A DNA stretch of 64,000 bases from an uncultured Pseudomonadota bacterium (GCA_949290785.1 CASETE010000013.1:3529-67528), one strand, 5' to 3'; counted from the stretch's first letter, positions 18,927 to 58,763 are shown. The notes: generated by a model from the sequence alone, not told the origin. Program-made: numbers and translations.

Positions 18927-19298
18927 TAAAATATAATGTAATATATTAATAAAAAGTAAAACTTGGGTTGTTGCGTGTTTGATAGATTGAATACGTGATA
19001 TAAGGAACAAAGTTTTACTTTTTTTGATTTTATGGCGCGTTGAATAGTTTGGTAATTATGTGTGTATTATGTATAGTTTTGTGCCATCGGTTTATGTTGG
19101 ATTTTGACTTTTAGGCTTTGGGTGTTTTTTTACGCCGCACAAGTACTGTTGTTATACAATTTGTTCGTATTTGTTTCTTATATGTGGGATGTTTATATGT
19201 TTGTATAATACTTTCAAAGTGTGTTTTATCTCTTTGTATAAAGATTAATTTTAATACGCGTTTAATTTTGGAATGGTGCGGATAAAAATCTGTTTTGT

Positions 19299-19680
19299 GG
19301 CGATGTTTTTATTTTTATGTTTATTGATGAATGTGTTTTTTTTGGGGGTGAATGGCGTTTTTTTGTTTTGGTGGGGGTTGGGTATTAATTTTATATCTGA
19401 ATTGTGAAATAGTTTAGGCAAGAAGCCGTTAAGAACCCGTTTTGGTGGCGCCGTTTTTGGTTTTATTGTTATTGATGAGTGTTCTTTTTACATGGGGGTG
19501 GAATTGGTGGTATTTTATTTTGATGAGGTCTGTATTTAATGTCTGAATTTATTACGTATTAAAAGACTGTAAAATTATTGGCCAACGTGCACAAAATACT
19601 CTCTGTAATAAACAGTCTTGCTATATATCAAAGACGGGCGACGCAGTGTGTAATTGTTTTTTTTGTGGGGATGATTGGAC
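19299..19680 (+). repeat. Three degenerate tandem units (about 148-175 bp) with a T-run + GGGGG + TGRATTGG core
   Basis: ttattgatga at 19321 and 19469. GGGGG at 19344 and 19494, GGGG at 19667. Units align at roughly two-thirds identity by eye. Confidence 0.6.
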
Positions 19681-20149
19681 ACTTTTAGAATGTATAATGT
19701 GTTTTTTGTAACTTTTATAAAAAGTATTTTGTTATTTGCTTGTATTATGTATAGTTTAGTCTTCAAAACGTTGCAAATGACGTGGGTTGTGGTGCTTGTT
19801 GGTGTTTCTGTGTAATCAGTTGTTTATATAAAATAATATAGAAAATACAACGAGTTAAATTTTGACGAGTAGGGCTTTTACGTTGTTTTAACCGAATTTG
19901 TTTGTTAAGGGGTGAAGATCAAAGTTTGTGTTGTTGAAGCGGGTCGGTTTTGTTTTGTGTTGCTGTGTTGTTGTATGGAATTTTTTTGTCGTCTTGCGGG
20001 GCCCGCATCTATATGAATCGAATTTGTAAAAGGGTGCTTGCTGTGTTTTGGGACATTTTTTGTGCATGTGTTTTGTCTTCGCTGTGGTTTTCGTTTGGTG
20101 AGGATTGTATCGGTCGTAACGATAGATAGGTTATAATACGTATAAGGCG

Positions 20150-20169
20150 CATAATGTCGCGACATTATG
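20150..20169. repeat. Perfect 20-bp palindrome cataatgtcg/cgacattatg
   Basis: Read directly. It shares the CATAATGT half-site with the inverted repeat at 20191. Confidence 0.9.
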
Positions 20170-20190
20170 TTGATTTACGAAGTAAATGAA

Positions 20191-20209
20191 CATAATGTGC
20201 ATTATACGC
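20191..20209 (+). repeat. Left inverted repeat of the AT-rich three-gene cassette
   Basis: cataatgtgcattatacgc matches the reverse complement of 21639-21657 at 17/19 positions. Confidence 0.6.
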
Positions 20210-20296
20210 ACGCAAGCGGGCGGGGCGGGGATACCAAATACGAAAAAACAAGCATGCTTTTCATCGTTTGATTCTTATTAAAATAAAGGATTAAAC

Positions 20297-20644
20297 ATGA
20301 TTAAAAATAAACCTTGTTATCGTAATACTGAAAAACTATTGTTTAGATATTTTCAAAGATTAAGATTATTAAAGCATTTTTCAAAACCTACCGAATATAT
20401 TCATGATATTATTTATGAATCTAATGCGTCAATTTGTGACGTTGGCCTTGTATTAAATAATCTAAACCTAACTAATGAACAGTCCGAAATTATTATAAAG
20501 TATTGTTCTAAGGGGCATGCACCTTTTATAAAAAATTCAAACGATTTTAACGTGTGGATTGACGCAATACATATTATACATAACGAATTTATAAAAAGAA
20601 ATATGATAAAAGGCATTTTGTATTCGTCTGAATATATTTGCTAA
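20297..20644 (+). CDS. Cassette gene 1: 115-aa hypothetical protein, possible sigma region-4/ArpU-like HTH
   Basis: Very AT-rich ORF with an AAGGA RBS. LNLTNEQSEIIIKYCSKG resembles a region-4-type helix-turn-helix; this is inference only. Confidence 0.55.
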   Translation: MIKNKPCYRNTEKLLFRYFQRLRLLKHFSKPTEYIHDIIYESNASICDVGLVLNNLNLTNEQSEIIIKYCSKGHAPFIKNSNDFNVWIDAIHIIHNEFIKRNMIKGILYSSEYIC

Positions 20645-20657
20645 AAAAGGATTATAA

Positions 20658-20987
20658 ATGTTAAAAGATTTATTAAATGCTTTATACGCAATTAAAGACA
20701 ATACGCGTTTAGGATTGTTAATTCGGTCTGGTCAAGATTTTGAACCGCAAAATGACGATGAATATCATGCTAAATGTTTATATTGCGAATTGTTAAAACA
20801 TTTTTTTGATGATAAATACAGCGCATATATTACGGCTGATACTATTAAACAAATTCTTGATTTGCGAAATGAAATATACAACCCGCAAAAAATACCACGT
20901 GTTGCTATGTATTTAAGAAATAAACTGCGTCCGGCACAACCGTTAACTGATGATTGGATTGTGTGGTTTGTTCGCAGATTTAGATAA
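20658..20987 (+). CDS. Cassette gene 2: 109-aa hypothetical protein
   Basis: AT-rich ORF 13 nt after gene 1, with an AAGGA-type RBS. No family recognised. Confidence 0.5.
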   Translation: MLKDLLNALYAIKDNTRLGLLIRSGQDFEPQNDDEYHAKCLYCELLKHFFDDKYSAYITADTIKQILDLRNEIYNPQKIPRVAMYLRNKLRPAQPLTDDWIVWFVRRFR

Positions 20988-21008
20988 TAAAAAATAAAGG
21001 TTGAAACT

Positions 21009-21350
21009 ATGAATAATTATAACATAATTGAAAATCATAATGAATATAAAAAAATCATGAAAAGAAAACAAACTATTACAAAAAAAGCAATAAAAAAGGC
21101 AATTCATGCTTTTTGCGATTTAGGCGGTTTTCAAATGCAACACATAGTCCGTTTGCGTATGTATAGTAAAGACAGGCTAATATTTGCAGGCATAGATTTA
21201 TTACATTTGCAAAATGCTATCCTTGAACTGCCTGATAGGGCATTAGAAGCAGTAAGTCAGTACGGCTATGATGAACCTTATTGTAAGGCAGATTTAGATT
21301 ATGCGCTTTCTATTTTGTCCGATAAATTAAAATTAAACGTTATTTATTAA
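21009..21350 (+). CDS. Cassette gene 3: 113-aa hypothetical protein, possible HTH
   Basis: AT-rich ORF with an AAGGT RBS. LQNAILELPDRALEAVSQYGYDE is reminiscent of sigma region 4. Confidence 0.5.
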   Translation: MNNYNIIENHNEYKKIMKRKQTITKKAIKKAIHAFCDLGGFQMQHIVRLRMYSKDRLIFAGIDLLHLQNAILELPDRALEAVSQYGYDEPYCKADLDYALSILSDKLKLNVIY

Positions 21351-21353
21351 TAA

Positions 21354-21381
21354 TATAGGCGGATTACGCCTATATTTTTTT
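21354..21381 (+). terminator. Rho-independent terminator after cassette gene 3
   Basis: tataggcg-gatta-cgcctata followed by ttttttt. Confidence 0.75.
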
Positions 21382-21638
21382 ATTCTTATTTATAAATAAA
21401 TAAATAAACAAATAATTATAATTATAACTATAATTATAAGGATTTAATAAAATTAAAATATTTTTTTAGCCACGTGCAAAAAATATTTTTTTAATAAATG
21501 CCGGTTTTCTGCGAAAAAAATCATTTTGTAAAAAATGTTTTTTATGATAAAATATTTTTTATCAAGCGGGGAAATGTAGGAGGTTGTTTTTTGTGTTTTG
21601 TAGACCCGCCCAGCATTACGGAGTAATGCGCACGCAAG

Positions 21639-21657
21639 GCGTATAATGTATATTATG
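21639..21657 (-). repeat. Right inverted repeat of the cassette
   Basis: gcgtataatgtatattatg; its reverse complement is cataatatacattatacgc. Confidence 0.6.
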
Positions 21658-21940
21658 TATACTTATGTTATTCGTTGTGGGGTGTTTTTTTGTGTGTTTT
21701 TGTTTTTTTATATTTTTTTGTGTTTTATGTCCGATTGGTATTTTTTTTGATCAGCGTGCTTGTTTTTTATATTTATTTTTTTATTAATAATTTTTATTTA
21801 ATACATAAAATATTATTTTGTTTATACAAATATAAAATGGTTTAATTTTATGTTAAATAAAATTTTGTTTGTATGATTTATGGCTGTTGTTTTTGTTACT
21901 CTTTATGTCGTTTTAGTGCGCTTGTACCCTATTTTTGAAC

Positions 21941-22150
21941 TTTTTGCTTGTTTTTTGTAAAAAAAACCAGAATTCCGGGCGTTTTTGAGTGTTTTTTGTC
22001 TTTTTTTGTGTTTTTTCGGAAAAAAGGAGGTTGGCGATGAGAAGTTTGTGTTATTGAGTCTCTGTGGTTTCATCGCCATATTGCAAATAAGGTGCTTTTT
22101 TGCTTGTTTTTTTGTGAAAAAGCCAGATTTTTGCGAATTTTTGTGCATCC
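21941..22150 (+). repeat. Direct repeat pair with 156-bp period in tract B
   Basis: tttttgcttgttttttgtaaaaaaaaccagaattccgggcgtttttg (21941) versus ttttttgcttgtttttttgtgaaaaagccagatttttgcgaatttttg (22096). Confidence 0.6.
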
Positions 22151-22478
22151 TTGGTCCTTTTGTATTTCTTTTTGGAGTAAAAGCGTGTTTTTTTTGCTTG
22201 GTTGTTAGTCTGAAAATGGAACGTTTTTAAAAGTTTGTGTGTGTTTAGGTGGACTTGCGTCGTTTTACGGTTTGTTTTTTGCTGTGGTGTGTAATATCTG
22301 AAAGGTGGTGTTTTTTTACCTGTTTTCAATTAAAATATTTTATTAATATAATAAAATAATAATTTGAAAAGATTTTATATTTTTTATTTTTTTATCGTAA
22401 TTTTTTATCTTTTTGTGTGTTGTGGCTTTTGTTTTTGTCTTCTTGAAAATGGATGTTTTTTGAGGTAAAATATTAAGT

Positions 22479-24212: not shown

Positions 24213-24659
24213 TTACGAAATTTTTTGTATTCTGCGAACGCGCCTTTCTACTTCGTCAAATGGGCTTTCTAGGAAGGCCTGGGCGCAAAGGAAGGCGATT
24301 TCTATGTCTATATCGTCAGCAGACAGCGCCAGTACGTTTATGTCATCGTGGAATCTGTCGTCGCGCGCTTGTTCTGGTCGGTTACATCTGGATGCGCGCA
24401 AATGACGATAGCGGTTAGCGGCGATTTCCATCCCTGCCCCCGTTCCGCATATTAATATGCCACGAGATTTTGCATCGTTTTGCATTTCGTCGGCAAGGCT
24501 TTGTGCTATGTCGGGGAAATCTACGATTTTATTTGGGTTATCAACGCCAAGGTTTACAACAGAATATCCCGCAGCGGTTAACATTTCTATTAAATATAGT
24601 TTTAATCCCACGCCCCTGTGGTCTGAACCGATATATACTTTTGAAATTGTTTTATTCAT
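24213..24659 (-). CDS. rpiB: Ribose-5-phosphate isomerase B
   Basis: VYIGSDHRG..LK...GILICGTGAGMEIAANRY. The ATG at 24659 overlaps the bactofilin stop by 8 nt. Confidence 0.9.
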   Translation of the reverse strand: MNKTISKVYIGSDHRGVGLKLYLIEMLTAAGYSVVNLGVDNPNKIVDFPDIAQSLADEMQNDAKSRGILICGTGAGMEIAANRYRHLRASRCNRPEQARDDRFHDDINVLALSADDIDIEIAFLCAQAFLESPFDEVERRVRRIQKIS

Positions 24660-25011
24660 TCTTTTTGTCCTTTTCCTTTCTTTTGGCAAGTTTACATTCC
24701 AGACCTGTATTGCCGGTGATGTTTAGTGTATAATAAGATAATGTGCCTGTCATTTGTGCGTTACTGAACACGTTTGCAATATTTACTGTTGCCGGACCGT
24801 CAAGCATGCCGTGTAAAAACAAGTTGTTTGCGTGGACTTTGCCAACTACTTTTCCGCCGCGGCCAATTACCACTGTATCCGCAATTACGTTGCCGATAAC
24901 GTTACCGTGAATTTGAACCGTATGGTCTGTTTTTATGTCGCCGGTTAGTTTGCAACCTGCCCCGATTATTGTTGGTGATGTCTTTTCTTTTGCGTTTGTA
25001 AATGCTAACAT
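24652..25011 (-). CDS. Bactofilin (DUF583/CcmA family)
   Basis: Repetitive beta-helix pattern: IGAGCKLTGDIKTDHTVQIHGNVIGNVIADTVVIGRGGKVVGKVHANNLFLHG. Confidence 0.9.
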   Translation of the reverse strand: MLAFTNAKEKTSPTIIGAGCKLTGDIKTDHTVQIHGNVIGNVIADTVVIGRGGKVVGKVHANNLFLHGMLDGPATVNIANVFSNAQMTGTLSYYTLNITGNTGLECKLAKRKEKDKKNE

Positions 25012-25014
25012 TTT

Positions 25015-26292
25015 TTATTCCTTTACAAATTTTGACGGGTCAAACGGAACGCCTTTGTAGCGAATTTCATAGTGTAAATGCGGACCAGTAGAACGCCCGG
25101 TAGAGCCGCCAAGCCCAACAACTGTCCCAGGTCTAACCCAATCGCCGCGTGTTACCATTACTTGTGATAAATGTGCGTATAAAGTTGTAAAACCAAGACC
25201 GTGGTCAATTTCAACTGTTGTACCGTATCCTACGCGTTCGCCGGCAGAAACCACGCGACCTGGTGCAACCGCCATTAATTCTGTACCAATCTTGCCGGCA
25301 AAGTCAATTCCGCGATGGCGTTTTGGTTCGCCTGTGAACGGGTCATTGCGCATGCCGTATGAAGACGTTATTCTGACCTTGTCAACGGGGGCGCCAATTG
25401 GCAAAATGTTATTTAATTTTGATAAGCCGTGCCATAATTCTAGGTCTTCAGCCAATTTTTTATATTTTGGATCAAGTTCTTTATCAAAGTTTAGAGGACT
25501 GAATGCCGCGCCAACAAGCGGATTAGAATATTTATTTGCGTTGTTTATCAGTGTATTCTGGCTGATTCCAAGCGATGCAAGCGTGCTGTTAATATTCTTC
25601 ATGTTGTCACGCAATGCTTCTGTGTTTTCTGATGTTAGTTTTGATACCATGTCAACAATTTGGTTGTCGGCTTGACTGATTTTTTGCATGGTTTCCATCA
25701 TTTGCAAATTACGTTTCTTTAGTTCTTCGTTTTCAGCGCGCGTTAATTCAAATTCTGTTGAAAGTTCGGATAGTTTTGTATATTCAGCCATATAATCTTC
25801 GTTGGCGAACATTTCTGTTATTCGAGTGCGCAGGAAGTCCAATTCGCCCCAAGTCTTTACACGACTGTTCATCAAGTTTTCTTTATCAGCGTCGGTTAAG
25901 TTTTTCGTGTTTAAGATTTTGTCGTCTATGACGTTCAGGTTTCTGGTAAGTTCGTTATATTTTTTTAAGTATGTTTGCAAATCAGTCATTTGTCTTGCGT
26001 GTAATGCGCGGGCTTCTTCCAGTTGTTGCGTGCGTTTTTGTAACATAGGTCTGTGATATACAAAAACGTATGTGGACCAAGATGCCCATATAACTAACCC
26101 CAATTTGCCACAGAATTTGGTAAAGCGCCAAAAACTGCTTTGTTTAAATGTATAAACGTTGCCGCGCGGGGTGTCCATTACTGTAAATTCACGCGGAGGA
26201 AAAATTTTACTTATTAAGCGCCAAATAGCACGAAAAGGCGCCGTTATTAACGCCCATAAAGATGTAAAATGTCTTGTTATAAAATTAATCAT
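25015..26292 (-). CDS. Bitopic M23 (LytM) peptidase with coiled coil, LmdC-like
   Basis: N-terminal cytoplasmic tail, TM segment (LGLVIWASWSTYVFVY) and a long coiled coil. M23 motifs are HRGIDFAG...VEIDHG...YAHLS...GSTGRSTGPHLHYE. Confidence 0.9.
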   Translation of the reverse strand: MINFITRHFTSLWALITAPFRAIWRLISKIFPPREFTVMDTPRGNVYTFKQSSFWRFTKFCGKLGLVIWASWSTYVFVYHRPMLQKRTQQLEEARALHARQMTDLQTYLKKYNELTRNLNVIDDKILNTKNLTDADKENLMNSRVKTWGELDFLRTRITEMFANEDYMAEYTKLSELSTEFELTRAENEELKKRNLQMMETMQKISQADNQIVDMVSKLTSENTEALRDNMKNINSTLASLGISQNTLINNANKYSNPLVGAAFSPLNFDKELDPKYKKLAEDLELWHGLSKLNNILPIGAPVDKVRITSSYGMRNDPFTGEPKRHRGIDFAGKIGTELMAVAPGRVVSAGERVGYGTTVEIDHGLGFTTLYAHLSQVMVTRGDWVRPGTVVGLGGSTGRSTGPHLHYEIRYKGVPFDPSKFVKE

Positions 26293-30078: not shown

Positions 30079-32814
30079 TTATATGCCCAAACCTTCGGGT
30101 AGATTTGTCAATACGGTAGATGTGCCAGTTTGTTGGTCTATGGTTTCACATTGTCCGTCGGCGTTGGCAATACCATTAAATGGGCATACTTGGTTTTGTG
30201 AGCTTACAGGCTTTGTGCACCACTGTTTCGTTGTTGGTTGTGTCGTAGTGCTTGTCCAAGGTTCATAATTATTAGTCAGTGCCAAAGTGTCACAATTTTG
30301 GTCGTTTGCATCTGATGCACTTGTTGTTTGCTTTGGTGCAATTGGTAGCGCCGATACACATTTGGGGCTTTGACCATACTTACTTCTGCGGCCACCGTTT
30401 TCCCAACATAAACAAGCACCCCAAGATTGCGTGTCTACGTTCAAGTCGTAATCGCGTGGGCACATGTTTTCGTTTTCTCCGATAGAATAAATGTCGGTTA
30501 AATCTGGCATACCATTACTGCCCCCGTATTCAGTTGAATTTTCAAAGGTTGCCACGCATAATTCATCTTCTTTATATAGCCCGTCTTTGATAAATTGCAG
30601 TTCTACAAACCGACCCTGCAAGTTAATGCATTGTGTACTTAATATGTCTACGACTTGGTTATAAATTTCTGTCGCTACGCCGGTTGAACGAGGTGTGTGG
30701 TGTGAAAGTACACGTTTTTGACGTACGGTATTTGGTGCCACAGTAACGTCGGATTCTTCTGTCGCAAGTAAGCCATAGCGTCTAAATGTCGTTGTTATAT
30801 CGGTGTCTTCATCGGTTAACAAATAAAATACAGATTCGTTTTGATGCTTGCCCTTGCCTGCGGTTATTACATCAAACCCGCCGAATGCTTTTTCCATCAT
30901 CTCGGGCGAACTGCAAGAGTCAATGCTCTGTAATTGTTTTGCGCATTCTGATACCGGTTTGCTTGTGTCACGATTACCGTTTTCGTCATATTCGTACAAA
31001 GTAAACCATTGTAATGCCTGGCCCTTTTTAAATACACCGCTATATGGATAATAAAAGTTTTCATAGTTTGAACCGCCAAAACTGTCAAAGCACTGTTTGA
31101 CGACAGCCCTGCATGCTGTCAGGGTATCGGTGTCTTTTCTGTTGTTTATATAGTCCGCAATTATGTCACCAGAATTTTCATAAAACATCATGTTGCAAGA
31201 GTCAATATAATCACGGCAAATTTCAGTAGTTAAAGCGACTTTATCGGGTTGTAATAAAATGCTGCTGTCGTCACCTGTTAATTCCTTCATTGCATCCGTC
31301 AGTGCGGCGTCACTGTTTACGTAACACGCAGACACAAAATCAAAGCAGCCTTGTTTGATTTCTTCAACTTTTGATTTCTGGGCATAGTATATTGCCAGCA
31401 AGGCTTTATCAAGATATTCTTCCCAGACTACATCGGCCTGCTCTGTACACTTGTCCAATGCTGGTTCGGCGAATTTTTTTACGCGTTTTTCAAAGTTTTG
31501 CACAAAAGATTTATTAGATGTAACCTTGGATAATTTTTGTTGTGCAGCATCAACGCCGTCTGCAAATTTTAATAAATTTCCCAGTTCATAGAACTTTTCA
31601 ACACCCGCGATTGGTTTGCCCGTTGATACGTCTATGAATTCACCGTTATCCAAACATTTATGATAACCTGCCCCGCAGACCTCTTCGCTGAGTATCGCGG
31701 CTTCTACATTATTTACACACGTGGTAATGTCGTCAGAATTATGCTTTTGTCTGTTTTCTACGCGTGCCAAGTCCAACAGCGCGCTACTTTCACGGACCGC
31801 CGATTTCATTTCTTTTTGTTGCTGTTCTATGGCAGATTCAACGGTGTTACAGTCTTGTTCTATTGCCATTAAGTAAGCGGTTATCGCGCGTTGTAATTGC
31901 GCGTCTGTACAATCTGATTTGACGGCCTGACGACATTGCGGATAAACGGCGTTATATAAATTTTGACCGTTATAAGTGGCGATGATTTGGCCGGAATCGG
32001 CGGTGCCAAACGCGTTAACCGCATCAAACGATAAATTAATGCTGTTTAAGTCCGAATATTTGCCGCCGACGAAAGTGTCTTCGCCACGAATGGAATTCAT
32101 GATTGCTTGTAACAACGCCTTTGATGCAGACGTGTCAGAAGTTAAGGCGTTTTCCCCTTCGGATGCCGTTTTCATGGCCAATGCTTGCGCCGCCGTCATG
32201 CCGACGACATCAAGGTTTTCTGTAAATTCTGTCAGTTGGTTCCCAGCATCTTGCATTACATTGCGTACCTCGGTCAGTTCAAACACGCGGTTGCTGCAAG
32301 AACAACGTCTGTAATCATCGTTTTTTAAACTGCAAAATTGATCCATACATGTGAAATAAGCGTTTTTACATTGTTCGTATGCCGCCCCCGTGCGAGTTTC
32401 TGTTATTATGTCAGCAGTTTGATCTATTGCGGCCCTGGACACGTTTTGCGCTTGGGGGCGCGATGTAACGTTATTGGTTTTCGGCGTAATTGCAGAACGA
32501 GAAACGGTTGTAGATGCACTTCGCGATGCGTTAGTTGCGTTTGTTTTTGTGACAACGTTTTGTCTTTGAGCAGTTGTGCGTATTGCAGTGCGGCCAGCAC
32601 CAGCAGATATAGTGTTTGTTGCGTTTCGTGTAGAAATATTTGTGTTGTTCGTTCTGTTGGTTGTTGCGGTTCGTGCCGTTACATTTGCGACCGTGTTCGT
32701 TCCGCGTTCTGTAACGCTTGTTTGACGATTGGTCGCGTTTTCATCACGCACGGCAGCCGTTGCATAGGTCGCGCAAATCAAAGCTGAAAATATAAAAAAC
32801 AGAATTTTTTTCAT
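30079..32814 (-). CDS. 911-aa secreted Cys-rich protein with a T/N/R/A-rich low-complexity N-terminal region
   Basis: Signal peptide MKKILFFIFSALICATYATA, then about 130 aa of TN/RT-rich repeats, then a Cys-rich body (many paired Cys). No family recognised. Confidence 0.7.
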   Translation of the reverse strand: MKKILFFIFSALICATYATAAVRDENATNRQTSVTERGTNTVANVTARTATTNRTNNTNISTRNATNTISAGAGRTAIRTTAQRQNVVTKTNATNASRSASTTVSRSAITPKTNNVTSRPQAQNVSRAAIDQTADIITETRTGAAYEQCKNAYFTCMDQFCSLKNDDYRRCSCSNRVFELTEVRNVMQDAGNQLTEFTENLDVVGMTAAQALAMKTASEGENALTSDTSASKALLQAIMNSIRGEDTFVGGKYSDLNSINLSFDAVNAFGTADSGQIIATYNGQNLYNAVYPQCRQAVKSDCTDAQLQRAITAYLMAIEQDCNTVESAIEQQQKEMKSAVRESSALLDLARVENRQKHNSDDITTCVNNVEAAILSEEVCGAGYHKCLDNGEFIDVSTGKPIAGVEKFYELGNLLKFADGVDAAQQKLSKVTSNKSFVQNFEKRVKKFAEPALDKCTEQADVVWEEYLDKALLAIYYAQKSKVEEIKQGCFDFVSACYVNSDAALTDAMKELTGDDSSILLQPDKVALTTEICRDYIDSCNMMFYENSGDIIADYINNRKDTDTLTACRAVVKQCFDSFGGSNYENFYYPYSGVFKKGQALQWFTLYEYDENGNRDTSKPVSECAKQLQSIDSCSSPEMMEKAFGGFDVITAGKGKHQNESVFYLLTDEDTDITTTFRRYGLLATEESDVTVAPNTVRQKRVLSHHTPRSTGVATEIYNQVVDILSTQCINLQGRFVELQFIKDGLYKEDELCVATFENSTEYGGSNGMPDLTDIYSIGENENMCPRDYDLNVDTQSWGACLCWENGGRRSKYGQSPKCVSALPIAPKQTTSASDANDQNCDTLALTNNYEPWTSTTTQPTTKQWCTKPVSSQNQVCPFNGIANADGQCETIDQQTGTSTVLTNLPEGLGI

Positions 32815-32962: not shown

Positions 32963-33049
32963 GGGCATATGGCGGAATTGGTAGACGCGCTAGTTTCAGG
33001 TACTAGTGGTAGCGATACCTTGGAAGTTCGAGTCTTCTTATGCCCACCA
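32963..33049 (+). tRNA. tRNA-Leu (anticodon CAG)
   Basis: Acceptor GGGCATA/TATGCCC, D arm GCG-GAATTGGTAGA-CGC, anticodon loop ttCAGgt, long variable arm, T loop TTCGAGT, encoded CCA. Confidence 0.92.
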
Positions 33050-33056
33050 TAAGAGT

Positions 33057-33132
33057 GGGGTTGTAGCTCAGTTGATAGAGCGCTACGTTCGCATCGTAGA
33101 GGTCGTGGGTTTGAGTCCCATCAGCTCCACCA
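33057..33132 (+). tRNA. tRNA-Ala (anticodon CGC), non-canonical A19/U56
   Basis: G3:U70 acceptor GGGGTTG/CAGCTCC, anticodon loop ttCGCat, D loop AGTTGATA, T loop TTTGAGT, encoded CCA. Confidence 0.88.
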
Positions 33133-33147
33133 GTTTTAAAGGTTGCA

Positions 33148-33234
33148 GGGGATATGGCGGAATGGTAGACGCTGAGGACTTAAAATCCTTTGGTTATTGC
33201 AACCGTGTGGGTTCAAGTCCCACTATCCCCACCA
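33148..33234 (+). tRNA. tRNA-Leu (anticodon UAA)
   Basis: Acceptor GGGGATA/TATCCCC, anticodon loop ctTAAaa, long variable arm, T loop TTCAAGT, encoded CCA. Confidence 0.92.
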
Positions 33235-33241
33235 CCTATTT

Positions 33242-33262
33242 AACCGCCTTATGCGGTTTTTT
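33242..33262 (+). terminator. Hairpin + T-run between tRNA-Leu(UAA) and tRNA-Val
   Basis: aaccgc-cttat-gcggtttttt, ending 8 nt before tRNA-Val. Confidence 0.55.
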
Positions 33263-33270
33263 ATATTTCG

Positions 33271-33347
33271 GGATGTGTAGCTCAGTTGGTTAGAGCGCTT
33301 CGTTCACATCGAAGAGGTCGTTGGTCCGAGTCCAATCACATCCACCA
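33271..33347 (+). tRNA. tRNA-Val (anticodon CAC), non-canonical C55
   Basis: Acceptor GGATGTG/CACATCC, anticodon loop ttCACat, T loop TCCGAGT, encoded CCA. Confidence 0.85.
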
Positions 33348-33569: not shown

Positions 33570-33595
33570 AAAAACGCCCGGTTGGGCGTTTTTTT
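33570..33595 (-). terminator. Terminator of the 33.6-37.7 kb minus-strand operon (ACGCCC-stem family)
   Basis: aaaaacgccc-ggtt-gggcgttttttt; the TAA stop of the 105-aa gene sits in the arm. Confidence 0.75.
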
Positions 33596-33911
33596 ATCTT
33601 AGTCCTTTTGAGCGGCAGCACGCCGACGCGGCACTGCGCCAATCTGAATATTGTTTCCCGGGGGTACGCAAATCTTGCCACGGCTGCCAGCCGTTACATT
33701 TCTTGTTTTCACCTGTGCCCGTACATTTGACGTAACGGCGCAAAGAACACGTTTGATCGGAAATTTTTCCCGTATCGGTTGTGCACTTTACGACGACGTT
33801 TTGATTGCGTGCGTCGTTTCTGCCCAATTCTTTTGATGATAATAATTGATATGCGTTAGCATTGCCGATTGTTAAGAATATTGCTGATATAAATAATAAT
33901 AAACGTTTCAT
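33594..33911 (-). CDS. 105-aa secreted Cys-rich protein
   Basis: Signal peptide MKRLLLFISAIFLTIGNANA; 8 Cys in the mature part. Last gene of the operon. Confidence 0.6.
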   Translation of the reverse strand: MKRLLLFISAIFLTIGNANAYQLLSSKELGRNDARNQNVVVKCTTDTGKISDQTCSLRRYVKCTGTGENKKCNGWQPWQDLRTPGKQYSDWRSAASACCRSKGLR

Positions 33912-33986
33912 ATCTTTCCCCTTGTATAATTAGATTATAAAAATTTTTAAATCAAAAAACAATGGGTAAATGTTCGGCTTGTTTTT

Positions 33987-35837
33987 TTATTCAGACGTAG
34001 TCCAAGGTTGGTCGTTCATTATCAAATAATACAAAGATGCATCTGGCATGTCGGGATTTCTTATTACCGGTCTTACGACATAAATGTCAACATTGCAAGG
34101 ATGTGTGTTTTTGTCTTCTTGGGTTTGTTGTAAGTAAAAATGAAATTTATTCGCAAAATCCATTGCTTGTAAATAAGCCGCATCGTCGTCTTCCGGATTA
34201 ACAGAATCACCCTGCCACATCAACCACATACCATAATTGACAACATTTTCTTGTCCTTGCAAGTCGTCGGCAGAAAGTAGTGTTAACGGTTTAAAATCAA
34301 TATCGTTTGTAAAAGTACCTGTACTTGTTTCTGTAAAGTCGTACATATCACCCAAGAATACAAGCGCACCATATAAAAAACCGCCCATTTCTTCCATCTT
34401 TGTAAGTTTACCTAGGTTGCTCATTGTTGATTGAAACAGCCAGTCGCGTATACGCCCCGATTTCATACTGCTGCGCGCAACCGATGCGCTGCTGCGTAAT
34501 AATCTTCCGCCGGTATTTGCCGCTTTGAATGCACGCCATGTTCTGGCAATTATGTTTCCCCTTTGTTTAATGCGTATACCGCGCAAAGCGTTCCTGTATT
34601 TGTTTAATTCAGAAAACGTTTTTGACTGTTCTTGATATTTTTTGACATCATCGGTTTTCGCCAGTTCTTGTTGTGTCTTTTGTAACTTAGACAGTTCGTC
34701 GCTTTTTGCAGTGCGCAATTTATCAAAATCATCAAGGCTTTTAAAGTCGTCCGCATTCTTACCAAGTTTCATTAATTCGTCAGAATATGTTTTTTCTGCT
34801 GTCTTTAAATCTTCGGTCAATCGTGCAGTTTTGGATGCGTCGGCACCTTTCATGCTGTCTCGGATTGTATTTATTTGACGGTATGCATCGCGCGCCTTAT
34901 CAATGGAACTCAGTTCTTGTGTGGCTTTGGATACATCACCACCAATTTTAATATATTTAACAACGGATTCGGATTGCCGCAATGTTTTTAGTGATGCACT
35001 CAGGTTTTTTAATGTCCTGGACGCACGTGTCGCTTTTGTTATCCCCGTTAAAACTGCCCCGCCACCAGCGGTTGCAACTGTTATTACTACATCCAGGCCA
35101 ACCTCGGCATAGCCTATCCAAGAAAGATTTGCATCGCCCGCAACATAATAGTCGTTTGAATCGTCTTCTATATTTACGGTTTCGTGCATTGCCAAATTTA
35201 TTATATCATCGTCAGACGCAAGTGCGCTTTTACTTGTACAGTTATAACCTTTTGGATAAATAGAATCAATATTATCATTAATCCATTTCATTGATATAGT
35301 GTTGTTTTTATCCGGACCAACAAATTCGTCCAACGCACCTGCCTGCACGACCATTATCGCGTACCATGCTGGGTCGGTGTTTGTCCAGATTGACGCATCG
35401 TTCATGTCGCCTATTCTGGGACTTGGTGTGGCTTCTGTTATGGTTCGCTTTTCAGTTAACATTAAATGTTGTTTAAGTACTTTTGGTTGCGTTTCATAGT
35501 TAACTATAACCTGCCTTCCACCAGGGAAATTATACACAATTGGCAAGAATTTTATTGATTCATCTTCTGGTATGTTTTGTAATTCTGGGCAGTTTAATAC
35601 GTTTTGCAAAACGGTTTTTTCTTGGAAGGTTGAATAAATCCATTGTCTAATTTCTGTTTCTGGCGACGTTTCTGAAACCTGTCCCGCAGAGGCATAAAGC
35701 GCATTTTCAAGAACCTGAGTCGCACATTGTGTATCATCGTATGGTATATTGCCTGTTGTAATATCGGGCGTAATATCTGCTGAAAACGCAGGAGTTGAAA
35801 CAATTGTTAAAAGTAAAATAATCAAATATTTAAACAT
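33987..35837 (-). CDS. 616-aa exported membrane-anchored protein with a central coiled coil, function unknown
   Basis: Signal peptide MFKYLIILLLTIVSTPAFSA, two internal hydrophobic segments (VGLDVVITVATAGGGAVLTGI; MGGFLYGALVFLG) and a K/D/E-rich coiled coil between them. Confidence 0.7.
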   Translation of the reverse strand: MFKYLIILLLTIVSTPAFSADITPDITTGNIPYDDTQCATQVLENALYASAGQVSETSPETEIRQWIYSTFQEKTVLQNVLNCPELQNIPEDESIKFLPIVYNFPGGRQVIVNYETQPKVLKQHLMLTEKRTITEATPSPRIGDMNDASIWTNTDPAWYAIMVVQAGALDEFVGPDKNNTISMKWINDNIDSIYPKGYNCTSKSALASDDDIINLAMHETVNIEDDSNDYYVAGDANLSWIGYAEVGLDVVITVATAGGGAVLTGITKATRASRTLKNLSASLKTLRQSESVVKYIKIGGDVSKATQELSSIDKARDAYRQINTIRDSMKGADASKTARLTEDLKTAEKTYSDELMKLGKNADDFKSLDDFDKLRTAKSDELSKLQKTQQELAKTDDVKKYQEQSKTFSELNKYRNALRGIRIKQRGNIIARTWRAFKAANTGGRLLRSSASVARSSMKSGRIRDWLFQSTMSNLGKLTKMEEMGGFLYGALVFLGDMYDFTETSTGTFTNDIDFKPLTLLSADDLQGQENVVNYGMWLMWQGDSVNPEDDDAAYLQAMDFANKFHFYLQQTQEDKNTHPCNVDIYVVRPVIRNPDMPDASLYYLIMNDQPWTTSE

Positions 35838-35841
35838 AAAT

Positions 35842-37227
35842 TTATTTTTTATTTTGTATATTTGTGTATTCGTCTTTGGTTAAATAACAATATTGAATAA
35901 GACTGATATTCGGTTGAAAATACACTTTGTTGTCATCATTTATATCTAGTTTTTTACTATTTGCATTAATTGTATTTATATTACATTTATTTATAGCCAA
36001 TGGTTGCCAATAGTCGCGTCTATTTGTTACGCATACAAACATTTTTGGTTCTTGTAAGGGTGTTTCTTCAAATACAGTTTCCGCAGGCGCATAAATAACA
36101 GTACCTTGTGTGCAATAGTCGTTATCACATTCAAATACATTGCCTGGTAAATTGCTTATATTATTTGTGTTTGAAGATTGACGTCGTGCTTCGTTATAAG
36201 TCGTTGAATTGCTGTATAAAAATTCATTGTCATCAACATCTTGGAGTATGTTTAAGTATACAGATGTTCTTCCGCATAAGCCAGGATTTTTGCTTTGGGT
36301 TACTATAATTGGTTTTTTATCTTGTGATGAATCAGAAGCGGTATCGCTTGTTGAAGAAGAGTTCGTGGAATTTTTGTTATCTTTATTTGATTTATATTGT
36401 TCTTTTGTCTCTTCGTTCCCTTTTTGTTTTGTGTCTTCTTTTTTTGCTTCACCGTTATTAGAAGATGCATCAGATTGTGCGGATGTAGTGTCGTCAATTA
36501 TGTTGTTAATGGGTTTATAGGCCGATTTATCTTTGTACGGTGCATAACCAGACGCTAAGACCTGTTGTTTTTGTTCAAATGATAAATCCGCGAAAGTCGC
36601 GGGAAAATCTGTTTTTATTACTTGATTAGAACCCGCAGAGTTTTGTGCCTGCAATCGTTTAAGTTCTTCTTCACGGGCACGCATCTCGGTCTGCCAATTT
36701 GATTTCTGCGGTGGCGATGCGACATCTGTATTATTTTTTTTGTTGTTCGTTACATCAGGATTTGGAACAAGTGCTTCCGGAAAAGCAACCGCCTGCCCTG
36801 TTGGCGCGGCGTTGGAATTGTTTTTCTTGTAGGTTTCAAACGTCGGTTGTATATAAGCCGCACACGGCGTTACAAAATTATGTCCCGGTAAACTGGCCAA
36901 TTGAACGGTAATGGTTGGGTTTATATCCGTTAAACTGATATCCATACAATTGTTTCTGCTTGCACAATATGATTCTATCAATGCGCTGACAACCCGTTGA
37001 CAATCAGCCGTTGTAACGTCAGGACCCTGTACATATACTGGTACAGGCATGCGCTGATTATACGGACTGTCCGGCGTCCAAAATGGATTGGATGAATAGT
37101 TTTGTACGTTCTGGATTTGACCGTATTTAGAAAAAGGCTGATTCGGCGTCGGAAATGTCGTCGCGTCCGACGTACAAGGCATTAGAAAACAAATCCCTAA
37201 TAAAACGAAATAAAACCGCATTTTCAT
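35842..37227 (-). CDS. 461-aa secreted protein: two Cys-containing domains joined by an S/N/K/D-rich linker
   Basis: N-terminal hydrophobic leader MKMRFYFVLLGICFLMPCTSDA. The stop lies 4 nt before the next ATG. No family recognised. Confidence 0.7.
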   Translation of the reverse strand: MKMRFYFVLLGICFLMPCTSDATTFPTPNQPFSKYGQIQNVQNYSSNPFWTPDSPYNQRMPVPVYVQGPDVTTADCQRVVSALIESYCASRNNCMDISLTDINPTITVQLASLPGHNFVTPCAAYIQPTFETYKKNNSNAAPTGQAVAFPEALVPNPDVTNNKKNNTDVASPPQKSNWQTEMRAREEELKRLQAQNSAGSNQVIKTDFPATFADLSFEQKQQVLASGYAPYKDKSAYKPINNIIDDTTSAQSDASSNNGEAKKEDTKQKGNEETKEQYKSNKDNKNSTNSSSTSDTASDSSQDKKPIIVTQSKNPGLCGRTSVYLNILQDVDDNEFLYSNSTTYNEARRQSSNTNNISNLPGNVFECDNDYCTQGTVIYAPAETVFEETPLQEPKMFVCVTNRRDYWQPLAINKCNINTINANSKKLDINDDNKVYFQPNISLIQYCYLTKDEYTNIQNKK

Positions 37228-37257
37228 TCTCTATCCATTATCCCCGTTTATTTAACA

Positions 37258-37731
37258 TTATATCAAAAAACTTGTTATTATTAAAGCCAAAAATCCCCCG
37301 GCGATGAAGAACGGAGCAAAAGGTATGAACTGTTGTTTCTTGCGTAACCCCCATATGCCCCCAAAAAGACACGATAATACTAACGCTATGGACAGTCCTG
37401 TAAAGCCAAGCCATATACCGCCAACGCCTATTAATTTTATGTCGCCCATGCCGATGGGGTTGTCGTATTTATATTTACCCTTGTTTTTTATGCTGCCGAA
37501 TATCAGGCCTATAATTGTAGATAAAATGTATCCAAATGTCCCTGCCAGAGCACTTTCGCGCGGACCAATGTGCCACCATGGAAATAAGCTGACAATAAGC
37601 AGGCCTATTAACAACATCGGAAACAAATAGACGTCAGGGATAATTCTTCTACGTAAATCAGCCACAGATATCTTCCAGGCGCAAAATAACGCCCCCGCCA
37701 ATAAGCCGATAAAAAATATATACAAAATCAT
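37258..37731 (-). CDS. A24-family prepilin-type (CpaA-like) aspartic peptidase
   Basis: 157 aa, about 5 TM segments. ADLRRRIIPD (first Asp box), IGMGDIKLIGVGGIWLG (GxGDxKL box), IPFAPFFIAGG. Confidence 0.8.
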   Translation of the reverse strand: MILYIFFIGLLAGALFCAWKISVADLRRRIIPDVYLFPMLLIGLLIVSLFPWWHIGPRESALAGTFGYILSTIIGLIFGSIKNKGKYKYDNPIGMGDIKLIGVGGIWLGFTGLSIALVLSCLFGGIWGLRKKQQFIPFAPFFIAGGFLALIITSFLI

Positions 37732-37800
37732 ATTTTTCCCCCTTGCCTTTCGATTCGAAACTATGCTACACTTATATTGTAATTTAGAAAAGGGTTTTTT

Positions 37801-38373
37801 ATGAGCAAGGGTTGGGATAGTGTGATGTTGAAAAAATTAAAGGCCTTGACTGGTAAAGGCTTGTCAACATCTGAAATCGGTAAACGACTGGGAATGTCAA
37901 AGAATGCCGTTGTAGGTAAGTTAAATAGATTGGGGTGGAATTCCAAGGCCGGTGGCGTGACCAACACAAGTGGCGCCAAAACCCAAAAGAAGACCACGTC
38001 TAAAAAAACGGTTGTTGCGACAACCGGCAAAGTACAAAAAAAGCCCGGTATAATTTCGGCTATCAAAAGTGCCAAAAAGGCCGTTGGTAAAAAAACAACC
38101 GATACAAAAAAACGAGGCGGGGCCTGCGCAGACAAAAAATCTGTAACTAGTAGTAATCGGACGCTGAATAAAAACTTGGCAATGCACCAGCGAATAATTC
38201 AACATTCTTTGGAAATGGCTAATTTGAAACCGAATCAGTGTCGTTGGCCAATCGGTGACCCTGATTCTGAAAATTTTCATTTCTGTGGTGAACAGGTATT
38301 TGTTGGCAAGCCTTATTGTTATGAACACTGCAAGCAAGCATATCAGTTTAACCCACCTAAAAAAAATAAATAA
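37801..38373 (+). CDS. gcrA: GcrA cell-cycle regulator
   Basis: N-terminal W....L..L...GLSTSEIGKRLGMSKNAVVGKLNRLGW and C-terminal CRWPIGDP.....FCG......KPYCYEHC..AYQ. Confidence 0.92.
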   Translation: MSKGWDSVMLKKLKALTGKGLSTSEIGKRLGMSKNAVVGKLNRLGWNSKAGGVTNTSGAKTQKKTTSKKTVVATTGKVQKKPGIISAIKSAKKAVGKKTTDTKKRGGACADKKSVTSSNRTLNKNLAMHQRIIQHSLEMANLKPNQCRWPIGDPDSENFHFCGEQVFVGKPYCYEHCKQAYQFNPPKKNK

Positions 38374-38385
38374 GGGTCATACTAA

Positions 38386-40500
38386 ATGATAAGAGAGAGA
38401 GAAGCGTCTTACCTTCATTTTAAAGATTATCAAATTGATAATAACTCTTTGCGTGCCTTTTATGATAATGAAAACAAGTTGGTTTTTGTTCTTGATAATA
38501 CAATTACAGACATAAAACCAAATGTTATGTTGGTCATGAATCCTGTTGCTGACAGAAAGTGGGACGATATACTTTCTAATGATTATAATGTTGATTTGGA
38601 AACCGTAAGACCTAAAAAAGATAACAAATATCAAAAATTAGACGTTGAATATAGCGGATTGGGGGCTTATGAAAATTTAATTAACGCGTTTATGAACAAG
38701 TCAGATTTAACTGATGCGCTGGCGCTATTGCAATCGGTTCGTAATGTTGCAATGCAACGTTCGGCGACTGACAGACTGGAAACGGCCGAAAGTAACGCTG
38801 AAAAATCGCGTGAAACGATAGTAAAGACAAATCAAACAATTTCTGAATTGCAGGTAAAACTAAGACAATTGCGTGCAAAGTTGACGCAGCAGAAAAATCA
38901 AGTGGGAAAAGAGCCTACAAAACAATCGGCTTCTAAGATATTGCGAACCGAGGCGCAAATTGATGCGATAAACGAAAAGTTAGGTCGCGCAAAAAAACGT
39001 TTGGCGAACGCACAAAAAAGACTTGTTGCAGCAGATGAAGACGCTGAAACAGCGCGTGGTATTTTAGCGTTGCTGGATTCCTTGGGTTCTATGGAATTAA
39101 AGAAATATGAACAAAACGTAAATTTACCTGTTAAACAAGAACGTGGCGATGTGGTCATAAAAAAAGACGCGCCCGTGCCGGTACGGCAAAACGAACATAT
39201 TGAAAAAAATGTTCAAATAAGTAACAATGTAGTAAAAGAAACAAAGGCAGAAAAAATGGCAGACGAAGAAGTAAAACCATTATTTGATAAAGACCCGGAA
39301 ATATTAGATGAAGAATTGGCGTTTAAACCAATAGATTTTGGTTCTGGGACTGGCAATGGCGTGCAGTCTGTGGCACCAACAACAAACGTGTCTGATATGC
39401 AAACGACGCGTAATAATGATGTGGCTTTGGATTCTACGCCGTTATCTTTTACGCCGCCTGTTTCGTCTGTCGGTACGGATGCGAATAATTCTATGTCCCA
39501 GCAAGACAATCAAAGAACAGATAATGTTGTGCCAGAGAATAGACCGGCACCAGTCTTGGATGCTATTAAACCGGTGGAAATGCCGAATGTTAATACTATG
39601 CCGGAAACGCCAGATGATAATTTTCAAGTTACACCATCTGTGAAAGATGCGCCTGTTTCTGTTTCGCCTGTATCGTCAAATCCTGCACCGGTTGCACCTG
39701 TTTCTGGTATTGCGCCGGCGGCAAGACCACAGGCTCCAAGTGTTGCAGGTGGCGGTCGCCCTGTGTCGCCTATTACCGGTTCTGGTACGACCATGACGCC
39801 AGTGCCTAGAAAGCCGACTGTGGCATATTACGTTTTGTTAATCTTGTTGATAGCATTGTCCATATTTACTTTGTGGTTATATCAACAGAGAGGCGTCAAA
39901 AGCGAAGTTCCTGATTTGGCGCCAACAGTTCAACAAACAGAACCTGAAGTTGTTGCGGAAAAATCGGCTGCAGACGAAATGGAAAGTCCATTTATTCAAC
40001 CGGTTGCGCAGCCAAATCAGCAAGTGGATGAACAACAGCAGGTTGTACAGCAAGATATGGGGCAACCAGAACAACCTATGCAAACGCCTGAACAGGTAAC
40101 GGTCGTTGAAGAAGAAACTGTTGTGCAGGAACAAGAAGTTATGGCGCCAGCAGAAGATACTTCTATGAATGTGCCAGAGTCCGACACGATACAACCTACT
40201 GTGGTGCCAGAATATACTGCGCCTGCCCCGGTTGTTCCTACAGAAGATGAAGTAATCGCAAGCAAGCCTGCTTATAACGTTTCTCAGAATGAGAATATGT
40301 TTGTCGCGGATGAAGCCTATGAAACCGACGAACAGTTTTATGCCGAGGAACAGACGGTAAATGAAGGACAATTATGTCCTGATGGTACAAGCCCAGACGT
40401 TAACGGTTGTTGTACGGGTGAAGTTTATACTGATATGGGCAGTGCTGGGTTCAATTGTTGCCCAAGTACCGGTGGCGATTGCTTTGCGCCATTATTTTAA
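38386..40500 (+). CDS. 704-aa bitopic protein: cytoplasmic coiled coil, Pro-rich linker, TM, acidic Q/E/P-rich region, C-terminal Cys knot
   Basis: TM segment VAYYVLLILLIALSIFTLWLY at about residue 485. C-terminus CPDGTSPDVNGCCTGEVYTDMGSAGFNCCPSTGGDCFAPLF. The start lies 13 nt after the gcrA stop. Confidence 0.75.
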   Translation: MIREREASYLHFKDYQIDNNSLRAFYDNENKLVFVLDNTITDIKPNVMLVMNPVADRKWDDILSNDYNVDLETVRPKKDNKYQKLDVEYSGLGAYENLINAFMNKSDLTDALALLQSVRNVAMQRSATDRLETAESNAEKSRETIVKTNQTISELQVKLRQLRAKLTQQKNQVGKEPTKQSASKILRTEAQIDAINEKLGRAKKRLANAQKRLVAADEDAETARGILALLDSLGSMELKKYEQNVNLPVKQERGDVVIKKDAPVPVRQNEHIEKNVQISNNVVKETKAEKMADEEVKPLFDKDPEILDEELAFKPIDFGSGTGNGVQSVAPTTNVSDMQTTRNNDVALDSTPLSFTPPVSSVGTDANNSMSQQDNQRTDNVVPENRPAPVLDAIKPVEMPNVNTMPETPDDNFQVTPSVKDAPVSVSPVSSNPAPVAPVSGIAPAARPQAPSVAGGGRPVSPITGSGTTMTPVPRKPTVAYYVLLILLIALSIFTLWLYQQRGVKSEVPDLAPTVQQTEPEVVAEKSAADEMESPFIQPVAQPNQQVDEQQQVVQQDMGQPEQPMQTPEQVTVVEEETVVQEQEVMAPAEDTSMNVPESDTIQPTVVPEYTAPAPVVPTEDEVIASKPAYNVSQNENMFVADEAYETDEQFYAEEQTVNEGQLCPDGTSPDVNGCCTGEVYTDMGSAGFNCCPSTGGDCFAPLF

Positions 40501-57065: not shown

Positions 57066-57560
57066 ATGACAAATACTTTTTCATTAGCGACTTTATTTAC
57101 GGGCGATTTAATGACTTTGTTTATATCGCTGGTTTTGGTTTTGGGCAGCGTGATTTCATGGGCCATAATAATTGAAAAAATTCGTTTGTGGCGTTATCAG
57201 AAGACTAACCCGATAAGAATAAAAGATTCCGATGATTTATCGCTGGTTGCTGATAAGTTAATCAAGCCGTTTGATAAAAATTTGTGGTTTTTATCAATGG
57301 TTTCTTATGTTGCACCGTTTATAGGTTTGTTTGGTACTATTTGGGGCGTAATGGATTCGTTTGCTTCTATTGGCGTAAACCAGTCTGTAAGCATTGGGGT
57401 TATTGCACCTGGGTTGGCGACTGCGCTGGGAACGACGGCTTTGGGGTTAATTGCGGCTGTTCCGGCGGCGATTGCGTATCAGTACTTTATAAAGAAAGCC
57501 GATGACTTGTACGATACTTTGTCTGAAAAGTGTCAAGAACTGAAGTGCAAACACAAATAA
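57066..57560 (+). CDS. tolQ: TolQ/ExbB-family proton-channel protein (short, 164 aa)
   Basis: APFIGLFGTIWGVM.SF......LATALGTTALGLIAAVPA..AY. Confidence 0.85.
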   Translation: MTNTFSLATLFTGDLMTLFISLVLVLGSVISWAIIIEKIRLWRYQKTNPIRIKDSDDLSLVADKLIKPFDKNLWFLSMVSYVAPFIGLFGTIWGVMDSFASIGVNQSVSIGVIAPGLATALGTTALGLIAAVPAAIAYQYFIKKADDLYDTLSEKCQELKCKHK

Positions 57561-57571
57561 GGGTAGAAATT

Positions 57572-58737: not shown

Positions 58738-58763
58738 AAAAACGCCGTTGTGGCGTTTTTTTT
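58736..58763. terminator. Bidirectional terminator shared by tolA and rnpB
   Basis: aaaaaaacgcc-gttgt-ggcgtttttttt. Confidence 0.8.

Follow-up and report, generated by a model that had tools for sequence, protein, structure and literature searches.

We analysed a 64,000-nucleotide stretch of DNA from an uncultured Pseudomonadota bacterium (GCA_949290785.1, CASETE010000013.1:3529-67528), called the window here at its full length. It holds a cluster of four minus-strand open reading frames (ORFs) that encode, in order, an A24 prepilin-type peptidase of 157 amino acids (aa), a 461-aa adaptor carrying a payload domain, a 616-aa protein and a 105-aa protein. The cluster lies between four tRNA genes (32963-33347, on the terminator side) and the gcrA gene (Table 1). 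The intergenic gaps are 30, 4 and 75 nucleotides (nt), in the same order, and a terminator hairpin stands directly 3′ of the stop codon of the 105-aa gene. An earlier note on this DNA had described four minus-strand ORFs with this spacing, a terminator and these two flanks, and the coordinates and the hairpin bear that description out. It had also taken the cluster for a single operon. The common orientation, the tight gaps and the terminator agree with this, but the 105-aa gene has a conserved predicted promoter of its own, and the four genes are thus not simply one operon. The 30-nt and 4-nt gaps suggest co-transcription of the genes for the peptidase, the adaptor and the 616-aa protein.

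Table 1 Features of the cluster and of its gcrA side. Positions are counted from the first nucleotide of the window.
Feature	Position	Strand	Remarks
Bidirectional intrinsic terminator hairpin	33570-33593		10-bp stem, A and T runs on either side
105-aa protein ORF	33594-33911	minus	Basic secreted precursor
Predicted sigma-70-type promoter of the 105-aa gene	33934-33962	minus	TTGTTT-N17-TATAAT
616-aa protein ORF	33987-35837	minus	
461-aa adaptor and payload ORF	35842-37227	minus	
Cys-rich payload, residues ~311-461	35842-36297	minus	Species-specific
Adaptor module B, residues ~178-245	36493-36696	minus	Short helical stretch and FPxTxADLSF...GYxPYKDxxAY
Adaptor module A, residues ~28-135	36823-37146	minus	YGQIQNVQNYSSNPFW...PVY motif, then 4-Cys domain
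A24 peptidase ORF, 157 aa	37258-37731	minus	Pfam PF01478
gcrA-A24 intergenic region	37732-37800		69 nt; CGAATCG, with GANTC at 37752-37756
gcrA	37801-38373	plus	Pfam GcrA, 100.8 bits; divergent, 69 nt from the A24 ORF
704-aa protein	38386-40500	plus	Coiled coil, one transmembrane segment (475-502)

The window comes from a Candidatus Enterousia-like gut alphaproteobacterium of the order Rs-D84. The nearest genome is an uncultured gut metagenome-assembled genome (MAG), whose 616-aa protein is 98% identical. Beyond it, the 616-aa family occurs in 79 species-level genomes, which are gut or rumen MAGs named 'Alphaproteobacteria bacterium' or 'Candidatus Enterousia', and a complete chromosome of 958,618 bp (OZ007020.1) is found among the genomes with this family. 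Enterousia belongs to the order Rs-D84 and has genomes below 1 Mb, without flagella or a respiratory chain and with few transporters; a partner-dependent lifestyle is suspected for the lineage (PMC12306168). When metagenomes were queried with the peptidase, the best 80 loci came from Rs-D84 only. As far as these sequences reach, the cluster is confined to a single lineage of uncultured gut alphaproteobacteria, namely, Candidatus Enterousia and its relatives in the order Rs-D84.

Because the 616-aa protein has at least 799 relatives in a 90%-identity database and the 105-aa family forms 423 clusters, all without a name, we take the ORFs of the cluster to be real genes and not chance ORFs. At a clustering level of 50%, the 616-aa family has 128 representatives among 1.84 billion sequences. 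To the idea that the ORFs are chance frames, or decayed pseudogenes without function, we give next to no credence: the missing annotation alone speaks for it, and it is refuted by hundreds of full-length homologues at 50-80% identity with invariant cysteines and catalytic residues.

Gene order and the spacer shared with gcrA

Comparing about 170 loci from GTDB genomes, metagenomes and assemblies, we find that the order of the genes is strongly kept. In 139 of 141 loci, the adaptor gene comes after the peptidase gene in the same orientation, typically across 20-35 nt; the adaptor gene stands 5′ of the 616-aa gene in 129 of 131, and the 616-aa gene precedes the 105-aa gene in 93 of 97 (65 of them directly). 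On the opposite side, gcrA is divergent from the peptidase gene at a distance of at most 500 nt in 141 of 144 loci, and the remaining three have it slightly farther away. The order of a divergent gcrA, the peptidase, the adaptor, an optional variable gene, the 616-aa and the 105-aa protein is retained in about 140 loci. The earlier note had named a loss of this order in relatives as a sign of fortuitous adjacency, and such a loss did not occur. The median identity to the window is 62% for GcrA and 56% for the peptidase; the 616-aa protein reaches 52% and the adaptor 48%. In two distant loci, L084 and L169, the surrounding genes differ and a 616-aa homologue (26-35% identity) lies 0-3 kb from the peptidase-gcrA pair.

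Two single loci have features of their own. On the metagenome contig L150 (2420-4999), a clean in-frame deletion of about 40 nt takes the peptidase stop codon, the spacer and the first adaptor codons, resulting in an 860-aa peptidase-adaptor-payload fusion, which may be natural or an assembly error. In L084, a 2477-aa autotransporter-like giant is encoded directly upstream of the 616-aa homologue.

The spacer between gcrA and the peptidase gene is near-invariant across about 75 species, though the proteins are only 50-60% identical. A CGAWTCG sequence, which includes GANTC, is present in the spacer of 75 of 76 loci, and its position hardly varies in almost all of these. On the gcrA strand, the spacer carries TTGCCT-N18-TACAAT (TACACT in the window), with GANTC placed between the -35 and -10 elements, and the spacer of L169 (5404-5467) has an equivalent TTGATT-N18-TATAAT together with CGAATCG. 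On one strand, CGAWTCG fits YGAKTCK, the binding preference of Caulobacter GcrA (PMC4647560). With the GcrA/CcrM sigma-70 promoters of Caulobacter (PMC4647560), the spacer shares a GANTC site inside a good -35/-10 pair before gcrA; it differs from them in that the site may regulate gcrA itself and not the cluster.

These features suggest a methylation-sensitive, possibly autoregulated predicted gcrA promoter in the spacer. Given its position, this promoter would therefore overlap the ribosome-binding site and 5′ leader of the peptidase gene, and the overlap may be the reason why gcrA and the peptidase gene never separate. The arrangement also suggests cell-cycle-linked expression from the GANTC-bearing gcrA promoter where it overlaps the peptidase leader. 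The promoter overlap, like the link to peptidoglycan hydrolases described below, is an addition to the account given in the earlier note.

The exported proteins and their link to peptidoglycan hydrolases

The 461-aa protein had been described as a secreted two-domain protein with a linker. This outline holds, and we revise it to a conserved adaptor core and a species-specific payload, joined by a linker rich in S, N, K and D (residues ~246-310). Using the conservation profile of the core, we delimited the two modules A and B, of which module B may be a docking motif. A hidden Markov model of module A found it in 168 ORFs across the loci. The payload of the window is common only to the conspecific locus L004, where it is 78% identical; in this pair, the adaptor core reaches 90% and the 616-aa protein 97%. 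The window cluster belongs to the fused type, its payload standing on the adaptor C-terminus. Five genes are usual, the additional one being a variable gene between those for the adaptor and the 616-aa protein. At least five unrelated families, a paralogue of the 616-aa protein among them, occupy this variable slot, either as a separate gene or fused to the adaptor C-terminus. Searches of Pfam, NCBIfam, PHROGs and PADLOC with the 461-aa protein gave only coiled-coil or low-complexity noise, and the adaptor core had no tblastn match in plasmids.

The adaptor modules recur on peptidoglycan hydrolases. Six genomes (L017, L021, L023, L024, L037 and L057) encode a second protein with modules A and B between the 616-aa and 105-aa genes, and these proteins end in Glyco_hydro_108 (GH108) and PG_binding_3 domains, at or near the Pfam cut-offs. 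Fusions of the adaptor core to GH108/PG_binding_3 score 36.7-38.6 bits against a cut-off of 21.2. In the distant lineage of L169, a core of modules A and B is fused to an M23 endopeptidase (41.8 bits, cut-off 28.7) and the 616-aa homologue begins with an A-type core; a search with the N-domain of this M23 fusion returned one protein. The adaptor core is also fused to a paralogue or homologue of the 616-aa protein in relatives. About 30 stand-alone GH108 muramidases, likewise encoded between the 616-aa and 105-aa genes of relatives, have module B as their N-terminus. Muramidases of the GH108 'secretion activator' type exist in alphaproteobacteria. The exported proteins are a conserved, lineage-specific module, with no detectable relatives and with a recurrent link to peptidoglycan hydrolases.

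A constant N-terminal module, low-complexity linkers and many unrelated C-terminal domains are features that the adaptor shares with polymorphic toxins and with hydrolases of the LysM or SPOR type. As a difference, neither module A nor module B matches a known targeting domain. The likeness to polymorphic toxins raises the possibility of a polymorphic effector cassette. The adaptor N-terminus would then serve trafficking, and neighbouring or partner cells would receive the variable C-terminal payloads, be they muramidase, M23 endopeptidase, Gly-rich membrane-active or Cys-rich domains; their delivery could take a route that resembles the type II secretion system (T2SS) and needs the A24 peptidase. 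A conserved N-terminus combined with hypervariable C-termini or a variable adjacent gene is what one expects of such a cassette, as are peptidoglycan hydrolases among the payloads, a payload that diverges faster than the core between conspecifics (78% versus 90%) and the partner-dependent lifestyle proposed for the lineage. However, no small variable gene consistently follows the payload, and the 616-aa and 105-aa genes that do follow are conserved and do not co-vary with it. No immunity-like gene was recognised beside the payloads, each genome has a single copy at a fixed chromosomal site, and no secretion machinery was seen in the window and the loci. Moreover, the payload variation is seen between species, and the 616-aa and 105-aa proteins are strongly conserved, not polymorphic. 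We regard the effector cassette as very unlikely.

From its N-terminus on, the 616-aa protein has a signal peptide, an acidic N-domain with three conserved Cys, a Gly-rich hydrophobic segment (245-268), a basic helical region (~265-480, net charge +21) and an acidic C-domain with one conserved Cys. Of the two hydrophobic segments claimed earlier in addition to the signal peptide, the one at 245-268 stands, and it is the only internal segment that hydropathy marks as transmembrane-like; the second (~486-497) is short and weak. Two glycines, G485 and G486, are nearly invariant, with a strongly basic stretch before them and a short hydrophobic run after. The AlphaFold model has a mean predicted local distance difference test (pLDDT) value of 64, the N-domain, the helical region 275-410 and the C-domain being confident. 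When this model was compared with PDB and BFVD structures using Foldseek, only helical-bundle or tape-measure-like noise was returned (template modelling (TM) scores of at most 0.3). PDB sequence and alignment-profile searches yielded no hit below E = 0.06, the Pfam, NCBIfam, PHROGs and PADLOC scans returned coiled-coil noise only, and a tblastn search of phages gave no match. A colicin-like toxin role for the 616-aa protein, with the 105-aa protein as its immunity factor, was rejected: both are Sec-exported, single-copy and highly conserved.

The 105-aa precursor yields an 85-residue basic secreted protein and is the most conserved protein of the cluster, with a median identity to relatives of 71%. 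It had been credited with eight Cys; the actual count is six (43, 55, 63, 72, 98 and 99), and all six are invariant. The AlphaFold model (pLDDT 84) shows a small beta-sheet and a C-terminal helix. It had no meaningful Foldseek match in the PDB (TM-scores of at most 0.3), and the protein had no family match in Pfam, NCBIfam, PHROGs and PADLOC. The exported proteins had been called unrecognisable, and so they remained in the four family databases and in PDB sequence searches, with no solved fold matching the models of the 616-aa and 105-aa proteins. We also considered the 105-aa protein as an analogue of the Braun lipoprotein and discarded the idea, as it has no lipobox and no C-terminal Lys.

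Examining the regions upstream of the 105-aa genes, we find TTGNNN-N16-18-TATAAT in 105 of 115 distinct sequences (0.5 in shuffles), regardless of which gene precedes, and the -10 box ends a median of 27 nt 5′ of the ATG. The 105-aa gene is at least partly an independent unit and is probably strongly expressed. The gene for a secreted 911-aa protein (30079-32814, minus strand) is usually located 3′ of the 105-aa gene and before lpxB; in the window the four tRNA genes intervene. The 911-aa protein has about 30 Cys and an N-terminus rich in T, N and R, and is 53-69% identical in relatives.

The A24 peptidase and the proposed envelope assembly

The 157-aa protein matches the Pfam family Peptidase_A24 (PF01478) with E = 3.2e-15, and its score of 56.9 bits exceeds the cut-off of 26.5. 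Two aspartates, D25 (in DLRRRIIPD) and D97 (in GMGDIKL), are invariant across 78 orthologues and are also kept in the distant L084 protein. The match and the invariance confirm the earlier assignment as a CpaA-like A24 peptidase of 157 aa with both Asp boxes. Five to six hydrophobic segments in the hydropathy profile predict a polytopic inner-membrane protein. Since the N-terminal methyltransferase domain of PilD-type enzymes is absent, we take the protein to be a short form like CpaA/TadV. With the CpaA/TadV proteins of Tad/Flp loci, it shares the A24 profile, the Asp pair in DxxxxIPD and GxGD contexts, a length of ~150-170 aa, a multi-pass membrane character, the absence of the methyltransferase domain and an alphaproteobacterial host. 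It differs from them in its divergence, being only ~30% identical to annotated plasmid A24 peptidases and matching none of the NCBIfam prepilin-peptidase models. By its profile, the peptidase is an ordinary though divergent family member, and the kept Asp residues indicate that it is catalytically intact.

A second difference from CpaA/TadV concerns the neighbourhood. No flp, cpaB/C/D/E/F or tadB/C gene lies within the 64 kb of the window or within ±10 kb in ~170 relatives, and it is within this scope that we call the peptidase an orphan. Scanning six frames, we found no class III leader motif in the window, none in the cluster proteins or any ORF of at least 30 aa of 85 loci, and no Flp-type pilin with a G/XXXXEY leader beside the peptidase in either set. 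In the window, pilin, secretin, ATPase and platform families had no Pfam match in the scanned ORFs of at least 130 aa, which were nearly all gene-like ORFs of that size, apart from shadow ORFs and LpxA, LpxB and S1, named by synteny. In relatives, the precomputed Pfam assignments of neighbouring genes likewise contained no CpaF/TadA, TadB/C, CpaC or CpaB/E. The motif and Pfam scans agree with two earlier statements, namely, that no Tad/Flp, type IV pilus or T2SS partner is nearby and that the three downstream proteins are Sec-like without a class III leader. The peptidase gene is followed here by genes for Sec-type proteins and not, as in Tad/Flp loci, for proteins with class III leaders, and no exported protein of the cluster is a canonical A24 substrate in the window and locus scans. 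The 285-300-aa and 360-510-aa genes of relatives were tried as divergent CpaB and CpaC. Their sizes fit, but there is no profile similarity and the second of the two genes falls into at least five unrelated families, and the idea was rejected.

The peptidase could be an ordinary stranded prepilin peptidase, acting on Flp-type pilins or pseudopilins that belong to a Tad, type IV pilus or T2SS system encoded elsewhere. Its place at the head of the cluster would then be inherited synteny, fixed by the overlap with the gcrA promoter, and the downstream genes would function independently of it. Its catalytic residues are retained, as in a working prepilin peptidase, and no cluster protein bears a class III leader. 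In L084 and L169, the peptidase gene keeps gcrA and changes strand relative to the 616-aa homologue; the overlap of its leader with the gcrA promoter and the synteny of the wider region point the same way. Yet independence of the downstream genes accords poorly with the 20-35-nt spacing from peptidase to adaptor in 139 of 141 loci, with a 616-aa homologue that is still beside the peptidase after rearrangement, and with the in-frame peptidase-adaptor fusion on the L150 contig. The lack of a match to any NCBIfam prepilin-peptidase model also counts against a stranded peptidase. A weaker objection comes from a comparison of Rs-D84 genomes, which reports type IV pili only in another lineage and leaves Tad genes undiscussed (PMC12306168). 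We consider the stranded peptidase unlikely on balance, though it deserves serious attention. If the peptidase were merely stranded, the envelope module would still be new and the puzzle of the peptidase would be gone.

Alternatively, the A24 protein may be a GxGD protease that has been recruited to cleave a membrane protein of the cluster other than a pilin, and the whole would then be a pilin-less, A24-dependent envelope machine. As a candidate site, the 616-aa protein offers a conserved GG-hydrophobic junction (~485-497) after its basic region. This proposal is consistent with the near-invariant G485/G486 between a basic stretch and a short hydrophobic run, the tight and near-universal linkage of peptidase, adaptor and 616-aa genes, the presence of the peptidase by the 616-aa homologue in distant lineages, the divergent peptidase sequence and the L150 fusion. 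The site, however, has no Glu at +5 and its hydrophobic residues number only ~10-12, we found no precedent, the topology of the 616-aa protein is uncertain, and the strand switch in L084 and L169 makes co-transcription dispensable. Recruitment to such a cut thus seems improbable to us. In a fuller version, Rs-D84 would be without any type IV filament, and the peptidase, as an intramembrane or juxtamembrane enzyme, would process a pilin-less, cell-cycle-timed envelope machine of the adaptor, 616-aa and 105-aa proteins that puts hydrolases and payloads at the wall or into a partner cell. This version we likewise treat as a long shot; if true, bacterial A24 peptidases would gain a new class of substrates, and the envelope system itself would be new. 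For the broader claim that the peptidase serves the module of exported proteins, we estimate a probability somewhat below even.

Our preferred interpretation is that the cluster encodes a lineage-specific, cell-wall-directed envelope assembly, and we see the chances for and against it as evenly balanced. The peptidase would be accompanied by two co-oriented Sec-exported proteins, the modular adaptor, with module A, docking motif B and a swappable payload, and the 616-aa protein, which would bring in a single Gly-rich membrane segment along with an extended basic helical stretch. The exported proteins would form one periplasmic assembly at the peptidoglycan layer, docking wall-cutting enzymes or variable surface or effector domains there. 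We infer this single physical assembly because modules are common to the adaptor, the wall hydrolases and the 616-aa family; action on the cell wall and timing by the cell cycle would be further properties of it. The function of the exported module is proposed here from these fusions and neighbours.

FlgJ, a scaffold of an envelope machine, has a rod-binding domain with or without a muramidase. The cluster resembles FlgJ-type scaffolds in having a non-enzymatic module that occurs alone or fused to GH108 and PG_binding_3 or to M23, and a hydrolase gene within the cluster. It differs from FlgJ and other known machines in that there is no sequence or fold similarity and no ATPase, secretin or rod protein.

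Several observations weigh against the envelope assembly. Hydrolase fusions occur in only about a fifth of the loci, and no GH108 or M23 catalytic domain was found by Pfam in the 461-, 616- and 105-aa proteins of the window. In L084 and L169, the peptidase gene stays divergent from gcrA and the 616-aa homologue is on the opposite strand, so co-transcription is not universal; L084 has, in addition, no adaptor or 105-aa gene nearby. The Rs-D84 loci share wider synteny (CorA, ACPS, LpxA/B), and HisS and PrfA are near the cluster in both L169 and the window. Because the whole region is syntenic in small genomes, adjacency overstates the functional linkage. The 616-aa protein, with one clear hydrophobic segment only, has an ambiguous topology, and the gcrA and 105-aa promoters are consensus-level predictions.

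Rs-D84 and Enterousia are uncultured bacteria that commonly inhabit the guts of animals and humans. The cluster is kept in every genome examined and exceeds many housekeeping genes in conservation, which makes it likely to be central to the envelope. It comprises three protein families for which no relatives are known, namely, those of the adaptor, the 616-aa protein and the 105-aa protein, a putative docking motif common to the adaptor and muramidases, and a physical link between an envelope module and the GcrA cell-cycle circuit. It also offers a test case for the role of an A24 'prepilin' peptidase with no pilin in sight.

Other features of the window

In all lineages seen, the distant L084 and L169 among them, the gene for the 704-aa protein comes after gcrA. 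The protein combines an N-terminal domain and a coiled coil with a Pro-rich linker, and it further has an acidic tail and a cluster of Cys at the C-terminus. Both the 704-aa and the 911-aa proteins gave only coiled-coil or low-complexity noise in Pfam, NCBIfam, PHROGs and PADLOC.

A gene for an M23 endopeptidase (425 aa, coiled coil) and, directly after it, a bactofilin gene are present at 24652-26292 on the minus strand. This pairing is that of the LmdC-BacA morphogenesis module of Hyphomonas (PMC10945521). An AT-rich island at ~19000-22400 has 29-32% GC, against ~40% elsewhere, and a strong T bias on the plus strand. It contains only three ORFs of 109-115 aa, with no PHROGs match, and no clear repeats or RNA families.

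Directly after uvrA, a 169-aa ORF (2373-2882, plus strand) encodes only the M domain of SRP54, with no N/G domain upstream. A 1765-aa protein (4618-9915, plus strand), probably a large surface protein, shows only a weak PKD-domain signal below the Pfam cut-off. Two ORFs without a family match come after tolQ/tolR-like genes at 57066-57973. Farther along, the window carries the RNase P RNA gene (58760-59086) and an IS200-type transposase gene (60879-61307).

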